Source of the DNA: Candidatus Poribacteria bacterium
Lineage (GTDB): Bacteria > Poribacteria > WGA-4E > JAJDTR01
Assembly (NCBI GenBank): GCA_965222225.1
Contig: CBDCTK010000002.1
Coordinates: 5,280,001 to 5,344,000 of the forward strand
Length of the DNA: 64,000 bases
Direction of reading: 5' to 3'
Shown here: positions 5,226-37,987 of the stretch, one piece after another
Layout: each line of letters starts with the position of its first letter
Numbering within the stretch: position 1 is the stretch's first letter
Made by a program: the position numbers and the translations under genes
Notes under the pieces: model-generated
Told to the model about the DNA's origin: nothing
The model's database searches: none
What the model saw: only the letters and a program-made list of their open reading frames with translations

Positions 5226-5305
5226 AAGCGAGCGGATAGATCAACTGAGTGAATAGCGAAGGCGATAGAAGATCCGGATAAAAATCCCAGTGCGATAGAA
5301 ATTCC
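5226..5305 (+). repeat. Hypervariable GATCAA...ATCC cassette cluster (nested)
   Basis: Full copy at 5239-5275 inside an interrupted outer copy, plus an extra 3' remnant. Confidence 0.85.
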
Positions 5306-33595: not shown

Positions 33596-34047
33596 CAGTA
33601 CTTGGCTCCTTCCTCTGGGTCCTTATGATACACACGGCTAATCTCCGCAACGCCTCCGTGTTTGTATTTTTCCGGTACGCGGGGATGGTCTGCAAAAACA
33701 CACACCTTGTATATATCCGGCAAGAGTTGATAGCTCCCTCCCCACGGTGTTTGGGGAAGGTCTTCAAGGTAACTTCCCTTCCAGCCTTCAAGTCCGGGGT
33801 TGGTAACCAGATCTTCCAGCCTCATGGGATATGTGTTGGTATGCCTGTGAAATTTCTTAATGACTCCGGCAATCATGTCCACGTCGTTGTCGGCAGACAA
33901 AACTTTTCGGTCATATTCTAGATACGGTGGCAACGAAAGGGCGGCGATAAGAATGACTAGCGCGACCAAAATGAGTAGCTGTACTAGTGTCATGCCGGCT
34001 GCACAAGATCCGAATCTGCTTTTTGCGTTATTCAGAGTATGGTTCAT
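33586..34047 (-). CDS. Type IV pilin / GspG-like pseudopilin
   Basis: G|MTLVQLL hydrophobic N-terminus; YP..LEDLV..PG...WKGSYL...PWG..Y. Confidence 0.8.
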   Translation of the reverse strand: MNHTLNNAKSRFGSCAAGMTLVQLLILVALVILIAALSLPPYLEYDRKVLSADNDVDMIAGVIKKFHRHTNTYPMRLEDLVTNPGLEGWKGSYLEDLPQTPWGGSYQLLPDIYKVCVFADHPRVPEKYKHGGVAEISRVYHKDPEEGAKYWWK

Positions 34048-35453
34048 CAGTATGGTTCATCATCTGGACGTTTGATGTTGTATTTGGCGAGTTTTTTGTA
34101 GAAATTACTTCTCTCTATTTTCAATTGTTCCGCAGTTTGTTTCACATTCCAGCGGTTAGCCTCGAGCGCTTGGAGAACGAAACTCTTCTCGGCTTCATCG
34201 ACCAACTTTTGTAGTGAGCCGTTTGATTGCGGTTGAAGACTGATGGACGTTGCGTCAATCTCTATTACAGCCTCATGTGCAACTGGGAGGACAGCGGCGA
34301 CATCGTCGGCGATGATGGTTTCACGAGGTACCATGATGAGCAAGCGTTCGACGATGTTCTTCAACTCCCGAATATTGCCCGGCCAGTCGTACGATTGCAT
34401 GACGCGAATTGCCGAAGGGTCGATTGTCTTGATCGAACGCGCATTATCCCGATGAAATCGCTCGACGAAGTGTTGTACCAATAGCGGTAAATCATCCTGC
34501 CGATTCTGTAATGGCGGTACGGAGATAGGCACCACATTTAAGCGATAGTAAAGGTCCTGCCGAAAGCTTCCATTCTCAATCTCTTTATCCAAGGCTTTGT
34601 TGGTCGCTGCGATAACTCTTACGTCAACATGCAGCGTTTGGCTGCCGCCGAGACGCTGAATTTCACCATACTCAAGCACTCGCAATACTTTCGCCTGCGC
34701 CTTCAGGCTCATATCCCCGATTTCGTCGAGAAACAGCGTGCCGCCATCTGCCAGTTCAAATTTGCCGCGGCGCTGGTGCGCTGCCCCGGTGAATGCGCCC
34801 CGTTCGTGTCCGAATAACTCACTTTCAATGAGTTCGTCTGGGAGAGCGGCGCAATTCAGTGGAATGAATGGCTTTCGGTTTCGTTGACTCTGCTGATGGA
34901 TAGCATCGGCGACGAGTTGTTTGCCCGTGCCGTTTTCTCCTGTGATGAGTACGCTCAAGTCACTTGACGCCACCTGCCTAATTTGTGTTCGGAGTTGCTG
35001 TATAGCGCCCCCTGTCCCAATCATCTCATCCTTGACGCCAATCTGAGATTTAAGAACTTCGTTCTCCCGAGATAGGCGTAATAGTTCTAGAAAAGGATTA
35101 ACAGTGTGAAGGATCTCGGATACAGTTTTGGGCTTGACGAGGTAATTCCTTGCGCCAAGTTCCATTGCTTTAACCGCGGTTTCAATGTCCTGTTGCGCGG
35201 ACATCATTACCACATTCAAATCCGGCTGGGTTTTTCTCAGATTCGTTAATGTCTCTATGCCATTCATTCCGCCCGGCATGATTATGTCAAGCAGCACAAG
35301 GTCTACGGCTTTTGAGGCGCAGATTTCCACTGCTTTCTCTCCGCTTGAAGCCGTTAGCGCTGTATAGCCTTCGAGTTTTAGACCTTGCGAGACCGATGCC
35401 AAGGCGTTTTTTTCGTCGTCTACAATTAGAATCGTACCCTTCGTTGATGCCAT
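34047..35453 (-). CDS. Sigma-54-dependent response regulator (NtrC/NtrX family)
   Basis: Receiver IVDDE / LLDI; GENGTGK; GAFTGA; Fis-type HTH. Confidence 0.95.
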   Translation of the reverse strand: MASTKGTILIVDDEKNALASVSQGLKLEGYTALTASSGEKAVEICASKAVDLVLLDIIMPGGMNGIETLTNLRKTQPDLNVVMMSAQQDIETAVKAMELGARNYLVKPKTVSEILHTVNPFLELLRLSRENEVLKSQIGVKDEMIGTGGAIQQLRTQIRQVASSDLSVLITGENGTGKQLVADAIHQQSQRNRKPFIPLNCAALPDELIESELFGHERGAFTGAAHQRRGKFELADGGTLFLDEIGDMSLKAQAKVLRVLEYGEIQRLGGSQTLHVDVRVIAATNKALDKEIENGSFRQDLYYRLNVVPISVPPLQNRQDDLPLLVQHFVERFHRDNARSIKTIDPSAIRVMQSYDWPGNIRELKNIVERLLIMVPRETIIADDVAAVLPVAHEAVIEIDATSISLQPQSNGSLQKLVDEAEKSFVLQALEANRWNVKQTAEQLKIERSNFYKKLAKYNIKRPDDEPY

Positions 35454-35634: not shown

Positions 35635-35808
35635 GTACATTTGTAGGGTGGGCACTGCCCACCCTTTCTCGTAGAGACCCCGTAGTGACCGATCAGCTGA
35701 GATCAACCGAACGATCAACTGAGTGGATAACGAAGGCGATAGTAAATCCTACAGTGGGGGATCAAGTGAGTGGACAACGAACGCGATAGCTAATCCCGAT
35801 AGAGATCC
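35635..35808 (+). repeat. GTAG-REP followed by a doubly nested cassette cluster
   Basis: REP GTACATTTGTAGGGTGGGCACTGCCCAC; cassettes at 35691, 35701, 35713-35749 and 35760-35796. Confidence 0.87.
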
Positions 35809-36001: not shown

Positions 36002-37987
36002 CTATCCCTCCTTAAGTTCCCGCTTCAGTTCGGAAATCTGATCTCGCAGCGCCGCTGCCTGCTCAAACTCTAGCCCGGCGGCAGCCTTTTGCATCTGAGA
36101 AGTCAATTGAGTAAGCAACGCTTGGATTTCTTCGGCGCCAACATCCGCCAATGTTGGGACAGCATCAGTTGTTTCTGATTCATCAGGTTTGTCCGTTAAC
36201 TTGGTAATGAGGTCATGGATAGTTTTGTCAATCGTGGTTGGCGTGATGCCGTGTTCCTCGTTATACGCCATCTGAATCTCGCGCCGTCGGTTGGTTTCAT
36301 CAATCGCGTTCCGGATGGCATCCGTGGCTTCATCGGCATACAGCAGCACCTCTCCATCCACGTTCCGAGCGGCGCGCCCCGCAGTTTGAATGAGCGATGT
36401 TTCCGATCGAAGGAAACCCGCGCGATCCGCGTCAAGAATCGCGACAAGCGACACCTCGGGGAGATCCAAACCTTCCCGCAAGAGATTAATTCCCACGATT
36501 ACATTGAAAATACCTTCTCGAAGTTCGCGTAAAATCTGCACGCGTTCAAACGTTTCGACCTCCGAGTGAAGGTAATTTGCCTTAATCCCAGCCTCCGCAA
36601 GATAATCCGTAAGGTCTTCCGCCATGCGTTTGGTGAGTGTTGTCACAATTACGCGCTGATTCTGGGCAACACGTGCGTTGATTACACCAATCAAATGATC
36701 AATCTGCCCTTCTACCGGGTGGACGACAATCTGCGGATCTATTAAGCCCGTTGGACGAATAATCTGTTCAACCACCTGATTGCTGCTGTGCAATTCGTGT
36801 TTTCCGGGTGTGGCTGAAACGAAAATAGCTTGATTGATATAAGAGTCCAACTCTTCAAAGCGCAGCGGACGATTGTCCAGTGCAGAAGGGAGGCGAAAGC
36901 CGTAATCTACGAGGGTTTCCTTACGTGAACGGTCGCCGCGATACATTCCACGTAACTGTGGCACCGTCACATGAGATTCGTCAATGAACATTAGGTAATC
37001 ATCAGCGAAGTAGTCAATCAGACAGTACGGTGGTTGACCCGGTTCTAGACCGGAGAGGTGACGCGAGTAATTTTCGATGCCGGAACAGTAGCCGACTTCA
37101 CGCAGCATCTCAAGATCAAAGCGTGCGCGTTGCTCAATTCGCTGTGCTTCCAGCAGCTTGTTGTTTGCGACAAAGTAGTCAATTCGTTCCTGAAGTTCTG
37201 TTTCGATGTTCACCAATGCTTCGTCAAAGAGTTCCGCGTCCGTCATAAAGTGTTTGGCGGGAAAGATTTCAACGGCGTCATGTGCCGATAATATCTCCCC
37301 TGTCAGTGTATCAATCTCAGTCAGTCGATCCACCTCATCCCCGAAAAGTTCGATTCGGTAAGCAGTGTTCGCATAAGCCGGGAACACCTCAATAACGTCG
37401 CCACGGGCACGGAAATTACCCTGCAAAAATTCGACATCGTTACGCTCATACTGAATAGTGACCAGTGCCCGCAAGAGTTTCTGACGCTTAATCACCTCTC
37501 CCACTTTAACCTCAACCTTATGAAGATCGTACTCCTTCGGCGATCCGATTCCGTAGATACAGGACACGCTGGCGACAATAATGACGTCACGGCGGGAGAG
37601 CAACGACGCCGTCGAGGCGAGCCTCAGGCGGTTAATTTCTTCGTTAATCTGGATATCTTTTTCGATATAGGTATCAGTGGAAGGGATATAGGCTTCCGGC
37701 TGGTAGTAGTTGTAGTAGCTGACGAAGTAATGCACCGCGTTATTGGGAAAGAAATCTCGAAACTCGCTGTACAACTGCGCCGCAAGAGTTTTGTTCGGGG
37801 AGATGACTATCGTTGGACGCTGCATCTCGGCAATTACGTGCGCCATAGTAAAGGTCTTTCCTGAACCTGTGACCCCAAGCAGTGTCTGTAATCGGTCCCC
37901 GTTTTTCAAACCTTTGGTAAGTTGACGAATTCCCTCTGGTTGATCGCCTTGAGGCTCGTAGTCTGAAATTAACTTGAACTCTTGCAT
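36002..37987 (-). CDS. uvrB: Excinuclease ABC subunit B
   Basis: [34 protein letters not shown]-terminal UVR domain. Confidence 0.98.

Follow-up and report, generated by a model that had tools for sequence, protein, structure and literature searches.

The small dispersed repeats (SDR) of Nostocaceae, 21-27 nt in length, were reportedly described by Elhai et al. in 2008 (Genome Res 18:1484) and are thought to be mobile. One of them, SDR5, enters HIP1 between its third and fourth nucleotides (PMC4390886, in excerpt), and an excerpt of PMC5861425 states that SDR-like repeats are not found outside Nostocaceae. Stems of REP sequences contain G·T pairs, and GTAG-tagged repeats are recorded in the Planctomycetes/Verrucomicrobia superphylum (PMC3733652, in excerpt). 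The single-stranded DNA (ssDNA) transposons of the IS200/IS605 family depend on hairpins, are strand-specific and replication-linked, insert by a short motif and leave no target duplication, and IS608-type elements act on the lagging-strand template (PMC6006769, in excerpt). The same excerpt (Quentin et al. 2018, PMC6006769) describes 'REPtron-like' loci of class 3 and subclass 1.2 TnpA-Y1, in which atypical high-copy structures flank Y1 genes, mainly in Planctomycetes and Acidobacteria.

Here we describe a 37-mer repeat from a Candidatus Poribacteria genome, examined in a window of 64,000 nt, by which we mean the whole stretch of DNA analyzed (contig CBDCTK010000002.1, positions 5,280,001 to 5,344,000). 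Like the REP/REPIN (RAYT) systems, the 37-mer is short, high in copy number, mostly intergenic and non-coding, with a covarying stem that admits G·T; it coexists with GTAG-REPs and Y1 genes and has the same strand bias as the GTAG-REPs. Unlike REPs and REPINs, it carries neither a GTAG nor a CGTC tag, beginning instead with GATCAA and ending in a 3′ arm GCGATAG...ATCC; its stem is weak, 2+2 bp split by tandem G·A, and is bordered by long conserved single-stranded arms; it self-nests massively at defined internal positions, replacing 2-3 target bases; and no clear cognate flanking gene was found for it. It also differs from REPINs and BIMEs in that inverted doublets are not typical: 288 same-strand nests stand against 35 inverted ones, and these are insertions and not spaced doublets.

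With SDRs the 37-mer shares very small size, putative mobility and precise insertion at a set position within another short repeat, but at 37-38 nt it is longer, has a different sequence, replaces target bases and resides in a non-cyanobacterial genome. Identity with the cyanobacterial SDR/HIP1 system was rejected on the sigma-54 regulator and UvrB genes that flank the locus, on the PSD1 domains (two matches in the genome and none in 14 control genomes) and on HIP1, which is not enriched (120 copies versus 87 expected). Literature searches yielded no description of the 37-mer, the literature not being searchable by sequence. The 37-mer is a new variant among REP-like and very small mobile repeats, with unusually clean self-nesting.

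The nested stack at window positions 35635-35808

The stack occupies a 548-nt spacer between two minus-strand genes, namely the gene for a sigma-54-dependent response regulator (34047-35453) and uvrB (36002-37987). Every piece of it was assigned to the plus strand, and its units are antisense to both flanking genes. The first element is a GTAG-tagged REP hairpin (GTAGGGTGGGCACTGCCCACC), an uninterrupted copy of the REP1 family; the initial annotation, made from the letters of the DNA, had reported it upstream of the cluster at 35635-35663, and it does lie just upstream, where we place it at 35643-35664. Degenerate remnants follow at 35671-35690, resembling the tail of a unit (GTAGAGACCC) and the stretch from loop to stem of a host (C GTA GT GA CC), a weak assignment made from sequence alone; within them, position 35678 is T in three of the four runs compared, giving ...GAGATCC. 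A 5′ fragment of a further copy, corresponding to positions 1-10 with one mismatch (GATCAGCTGA, 35691-35700), abuts the host copy and has no 3′ remainder after 35808.

From 35701 to 35808, pieces of a host copy alternate with inserts. Host positions 1-12, GATCAA CC GA AC (GATCAACCGAAC, 35701-35712), end in a junction of the k=12 class and lead into insert 1, a full 37-nt unit (GATCAACTGAGTGGATAACGAAGGCGATAGTAAATCC, 35713-35750) with slots CT/GT...AC/AG and TAA, no mismatch to the consensus and a terminal T at 35750. Host positions 15-23, ACA GT GG GG (ACAGTGGGG, 35751-35759), precede insert 2, likewise a full 37-nt unit (GATCAAGTGAGTGGACAACGAACGCGATAGCTAATCC, 35760-35797), with slots GT/GT...AC/AC and CTA and a terminal C at 35797; host positions 26-36, GATAG AG ATCC (GATAGAGATCC, 35798-35808), of the 2-nt-slot type, close the stack. 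A repeat finder reports the inserts without their pyrimidines (35713-35749 and 35760-35796) as direct copies of 37 nt each that are 86% identical, and the slot values first read for them (CT,GT,AC,AG,TAA and GT,GT,AC,AC,CTA) match the sequence exactly.

When rejoined, the three flanking pieces give a 36-nt third family member minus positions 13-14 and 24-25. Both of its slot pairs are complementary, CC (7-8) with GG and AC (11-12) with GT, and it departs from the invariant positions once (A21 to G). Insert 1 stands in place of the loop bases GG (host positions 13-14), and insert 2 in place of GC (host positions 24-25), where the host hairpin has its 3′ foot. The likeness is not due to chance: searching the window with the 37-nt consensus at up to three mismatches gave three matches, versus none in 100 dinucleotide shuffles; another family member, with two mismatches, lies at 5239-5275 on the plus strand.

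The proposal that a single host copy took two insertions, at separate internal positions, is borne out both by this exact reconstruction and by public run X8, in which one contig runs from 35713 to 35751 across a lone G and retains insert 2. The allele without insert 1 has the consensus loop GGACA (...GAAC-GG-ACAGTGGGG, then insert 2). Run X8 contains two strains at about equal depth, and the evidence for the empty allele is a single short contig with a depth of 14.9 and 35 nt on its shorter side. Because the strain without insert 1 has insert 2, insert 1 is the younger and represents a separate event. Comparison of the two alleles indicates that insert 1 replaced GG, or one G if its first G is counted as shared. 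A joint from 35674 to 35713 in RNA run X4, and backward joints in runs X3 and X14, were set aside as probably arising from other repeat copies. Gaps between the contigs of the runs fall at the repeats and are uninformative.

A second double-hit locus is found at G000:C2:4243020-4243125, G000:C2 being the 5.6-Mb contig of this genome. There a CC/AC host carries a CT-type loop insert and another unit at position 23, and the locus is 83% identical to the stack at 35701-35808, with a different second insert.

Sequence, hairpin and spread of the family

The family consensus reads GATCAA nn GA nn G[GA]A[TC]A nn GA nn GCGATAG n(2-3) ATCC, then a pyrimidine, and units measure 37-38 nt with that terminal pyrimidine included (36-nt members with a 2-nt slot exist). 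A strict 37-nt pattern with up to four mismatches finds 231 copies in the genome, a relaxed pattern 951, and a pattern requiring the exact invariant positions 650, the reversed-pattern control for the last giving 0. Exact-invariant copies number 367-1011 per genome in 10 of 10 genomes of the genus, and 123-150 copies are present in all four genomes of a second genus, g4; one genome of genus g6 has 16 copies, six other genomes have 1-4 each, and across the phylum any match occurs in 21 of 176 genomes. On the main contig, 822 of the 948 copies fall outside crude ORF calls. No Rfam family matched the unit at E values up to 1, and metagenome contigs scanned with a 25-nt flank pattern gave no match.

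A single covarying hairpin spans positions 7-23 of each unit, built from 2+2 covarying Watson-Crick pairs around a tandem G·A/A·G and closed by a 5-nt loop. Counted on 599 distinct sequences, positions 7-23 are paired in 541 (shuffled mean 310), 8-22 in 534 (334), 11-19 in 558 (290) and 12-18 in 559 (469), with three or four pair types at each covarying position pair, and the tandem G·A/A·G at 9·21 and 10·20 is almost invariant. G·T far exceeds A·C across the covarying pairs (~291 versus ~64), which indicates that the hairpin is selected on the top strand, that is, the strand as written. Nearest-neighbor DNA folding of single units did no better than shuffles: minimum free energies are -1.0 and -0.6 kcal/mol, and 113 and 172 of 200 shuffles, respectively, fold at least as well.

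Junctions in nested copies, other repeats and empty sites

A copy was scored as nested when it is directly preceded by the 5′ portion of another copy, as is the case for 288 of 951. The last host position before the insert is 23 in 110 of them (the class of insert 2, and the commonest), 19 in 44, 12 in 43, 17 in 37, 18 in 20, 10 in 19 and another position in 15. Nest sites thus lie mainly just after variable dinucleotides, where the initial proposal had placed both inserts of this locus. That proposal also called for nested junctions to be collected genome-wide and held that the host loses bases without target duplication. In the 162 nests whose host 3′ part is recognizable, the host is shorter by a net 1 nt in 78 and by 2 nt in 55, keeps its length in 4 and shows scattered values in 25, giving a loss of 1 or 2 nt in 133, and no target duplication was found at the nested junctions examined genome-wide. 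The 2-nt host loss read from this locus is correct for it; across the genome, the replaced stretch always starts at a G and spans 2 or 3 nt, the first G of the element taking the place of a target G and the replaced bases being GC, GCG, GCA, GA or GR. Among position-23 nests, inserts with a 3-nt slot yield unit+Y+GATAG in 26 copies versus Y+ATAG in 1, and inserts with a 2-nt slot yield unit+Y+ATAG in 38 copies. Of the 951 copies, 606 are followed by C, 285 by T, 38 by A and 22 by G, hence 891 by a pyrimidine; this pyrimidine after ATCC had been taken to be added at insertion, but since it also follows 619 of 663 non-nested copies, it is the last base of the element itself.

Inverted-orientation nests follow the same general rule, with unit+T in place of GC, and 33 of the 35 lie at the palindromic GC site. 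The 288 nested copies represent 265 distinct host/insert combinations, indicating that nests are mostly separate or old events; some composites have themselves been amplified whole, such as one present in 24 identical copies inside REP1, so that instances outnumber insertion events. Hairpin repeats are the favored targets, hit at their 3′ foot (G|CGAYAG), in the loop or at the ends of the stem; they comprise the family's own copies, GTAG-REPs and a further hairpin repeat, REP-P. For loop insertions, CT-type inserts pair with AC-type hosts in 30 of 43 hosts.

Upstream flanks of units are S-rich and nothing more specific. No guide-target covariation was found between the flank and the unit slots (mutual information ≤0.11 overall), and guide-target base pairing was rejected on this weak signal. 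Pure insertion at G^C without loss was rejected because a T follows the unit in 17 of the 30 direct nests at the GC site and in 26 of the 28 inverted ones, and also because the loop allele has GG versus unit+T. The empty sites fit neither a 3-nt duplication of ATC in the target nor a unit that is circularly permuted, with its cut at G24^C25. At several loci of the 5.6-Mb contig, units inside a 'TAATCCGCGATTCAGACAAT' repeat are flanked by direct repeats of 7-8 nt, CGTAATCC or CTTAATC, which resemble a target duplication and depart from the general rule.

The junction rule extends beyond self-nesting, to GTAG-REPs, to a second hairpin repeat with empty copies and to congeners. The genome contains 414 GTAGGGTG sites of REP1; of 366 GTAGGGTG[CG] sites, 188 are empty-like and 178 otherwise, many of the latter with a 37-mer. 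The empty REP1 apex, GTAGGGTGC-GCAC-TGCGCACC, is present in 58 exact copies, and its filled counterpart, longer by a net 34 nt, is GTAGGGTGC-[36 nt]-CC or AC-TGCGCACC; at a second REP1 site, CACTGC-GC-ACCAGC becomes CACTGC-[unit]-T-ACCAGC. REP-P, a hairpin AAGCCCCAGnGGGG-CGACAGG (CCCCnnnGGGG-CGACAGG) located in a ~300-nt MITE-like element and elsewhere, shows GGG-GCG-ACAGG when empty and GGG-[unit]-C or T-ACAGG, or -CG/-TG-ACAGG, when filled. Identical unit sequences are found in different target classes. In congener G001, one insert type, whose copies are at most a few bases apart, occurs in many different hosts, and exact position-23 nests number 93 in G001 and 38 in congener G005 and occur once in one of three g4 genomes. 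With nesting both in itself and in repeats that have empty copies, every junction can be read to the base, and we are confident that the 37-mer is a real mobile element with this junction rule.

The ~300-nt MITE-like element occurs at 47 places on the 5.6-Mb contig (for example C2:2138609 and C2:5333115, the latter at ~53115 of the window). It is bounded by terminal inverted repeats (TAAGAGCCTGTTTGAA...TTCAAACAGGCTCTTA) and contains one GTAG-REP along with two REP-P hairpins, and most of its copies differ in which of these hairpins hold a 37-mer.

An exact empty site for the stack was not found in congeners, in which the orthologous spacer is too diverged: between the sigma-54 regulator and uvrB it measures 110-401 nt in nine congeners versus 555 nt here, and its content of REPs and 37-mers differs in all nine, while the flanking genes are 83-88% identical. 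These comparisons bear on the view that the repeats are a functional structured RNA or a protein-binding array grown by local duplication, and not mobile DNA. Covarying pairs would then reflect a selected structure, and the clustering of copies in intergenic regions would fit; against this, the orthologous spacer is different in every congener, identical units stand in unrelated contexts, empty and filled alleles and sites exist, and the units have neither a preferred orientation to genes nor an Rfam match. We consider this view largely refuted and its truth highly improbable.

Strand bias, candidate enzymes and mechanism

Unit orientation is unrelated to that of the flanking genes (285 co-directional, 262 anti-directional) and is strongly associated with local GC skew, with 130 plus and 277 minus units where skew is positive and 324 plus and 129 minus where it is negative (Fisher p ~1e-31; p ~9e-20 after collapsing clusters). 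Uninterrupted GTAG-REPs show an orientation bias in the same direction (p ~1e-9). This skew-linked orientation points to an asymmetry that acts on DNA and is linked to replication. The leading strand is typically the G-rich one; if this holds here, the structured top strand would lie on the leading-strand template in ~70% of copies. The strand bias could, however, come from differential loss instead of from the insertion mechanism.

The sign of GC skew, taken in 200-kb bins, flips about ten times over the length of the 5.6-Mb contig, and the orientation of 37-mers and GTAG-REPs tracks each change. The sign changes suggest many past inversions or an unusual replication history.

The same orientation data weigh on retro-insertion, in which an RNA copy would be reverse-transcribed into nicked targets, the terminal pyrimidine and the lost bases resulting from priming and template jumps. 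The unit has G·U-tolerant stems, a tandem G·A and a GNRNA-like pentaloop, which are typical RNA motifs; the 3′ junction is variable; and contigs from an RNA library (run X4) cover the region, with DNA carry-over possible. Yet RNA-mediated movement sits poorly with an orientation indifferent to neighboring genes and tied to GC skew, with units that are antisense to both genes at the stack and with the lack of an Rfam match, and we judge it quite improbable.

Five matches to PF01797 (Y1_Tnp) are present in the genome, and matches occur in 25 of 31 relatives, including relatives that lack the 37-mer. The best match is a 157-aa protein that scores above the NCBIfam IS200 cut-off and has the motifs DHIH and Y---Q--HH, the latter being the signature of subclass-1.2 TnpA-Y1 (PMC6006769, in excerpt). 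Its gene (G000:C2:3080372-3080716) is flanked by inverted REP-P hairpins, one empty and one filled by a 37-mer, in a REPtron-like layout. The hairpins lie at G000:C2:3080209-3080400 and 3080750-3080790 (locus L017, 810-1390), and REP-P-flanked Y1 layouts also occur in genera g6 and g4 (loci L030, L031, L021 and L027). The excerpted account describes subclass 1.2 as generally without such flanking structures and as mostly cyanobacterial or from Bacteroidetes (PMC6006769). The locus is like REPtron-like loci in pairing a protein with subclass-1.2 motifs with inverted flanking hairpins, and unlike them in that the flanking hairpin is REP-P, which the 37-mer only invades; REP-P is a possible counterpart of the published 'CnGA-foot' structures (PMC6006769).

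Across the genus, units lie within 175 nt of ~10 of 13 subclass-1.2 genes, versus 645 of 4333 genes in general, because REP-P hairpins flank those genes and the 37-mer invades the hairpins. In genus g6 the same Y1 gene occurs with REP-P flanks and without 37-mers, class-2 RAYT-like genes are flanked by GTAG-REPs, and no Y1 gene specifically tied to the 37-mer was found in the genome and its relatives. REP-P and the unit nevertheless share a hairpin and a GCGAYAG foot, which is also the main target, and on this basis a subclass-1.2 enzyme would be the best guess. As a separate observation, the C-terminal half of a class-2 RAYT-like gene, with the motif YIKNNP and without the N-terminal part, is present at G000:C2:3560213-3560573 (L033, 914-1274), bracketed by two inward-facing 37-mers, as though a deletion associated with the repeats had truncated it.

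We propose that the unit moves as single-stranded DNA at replication forks, where a host HUH/Y1 enzyme of the IS200/RAYT superfamily would cut and join it in the manner of a REP, and that it may be a parasite of the genome's other REP families. The likeness to IS200/IS605 elements lies in the strand-specific hairpin, the skew-linked orientation, the lack of target duplication and insertion beside a short motif. Those elements differ, however, in having two different hairpin ends as opposed to one hairpin, in inserting 3′ of a fixed tetranucleotide without target loss, whereas the 37-mer mostly costs its host 1 or 2 nt net, and in acting on the lagging-strand template, a strand preference apparently opposite to that seen here. 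The loss of 2-3 target nt and the single hairpin in place of two ends stand against a Y1 enzyme, and no IS200/IS605 or RAYT reaction is known in which target bases are deleted. We hold the ssDNA/Y1 mechanism for the unit only tentatively.

Template switching offers a route with no dedicated enzyme: in the course of replication or repair, a DNA polymerase would jump at hairpins, copy a unit located elsewhere and return 2-3 nt downstream. Several features of the family would follow from it, namely target bases that are replaced and not duplicated, junctions at hairpin feet and loops, orientation that follows GC skew and not transcription, and a somewhat variable 3′ junction (Y, or Y plus G). It accounts less readily for a 5′ junction that is exact at the first base of the unit in hundreds of cases with microhomology of at most 1-2 nt, for whole units with defined ends in many unrelated targets, and for conserved single-stranded arms (GATCAA, GCGATAG, ATCC) that look like protein recognition sites, and we regard it as unlikely.

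Returning to ssDNA movement, a bolder form of the proposal is a minimal 'hyperparasitic' ssDNA element that colonizes REP families and its own copies by two-cut replacement, in which an orphan enzyme of the Y1 HUH type, such as the subclass-1.2 protein, would swap a G plus 1-2 nt of a folded hairpin's loop or foot for the unit. We put this forward as a speculation, somewhat doubtful in its full form; two-cut replacement, if true, would have no described counterpart in the integration chemistry of IS200/IS605 or RAYT systems. Taken as a whole, the locus is best read, with moderate confidence, as a nested stack of a very small non-autonomous mobile element that would move as ssDNA.

The multiplication of REP-like repeats is largely inferred, and clean before-and-after sites are rare; the 37-mer family provides hundreds of them. 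It shows that fewer than 40 nt are enough for an element to have precise ends, to prefer a certain target structure and to replace target bases reproducibly. The family also supplies defined oligonucleotide substrates with which Y1 HUH enzymes that are still poorly understood (subclass 1.2 and RAYT-like) could be probed, in a small phylum that has received little study. Within the genus, 37-mer activity explains the hypervariable intergenic regions and the breaks of short-read assemblies that occur there.
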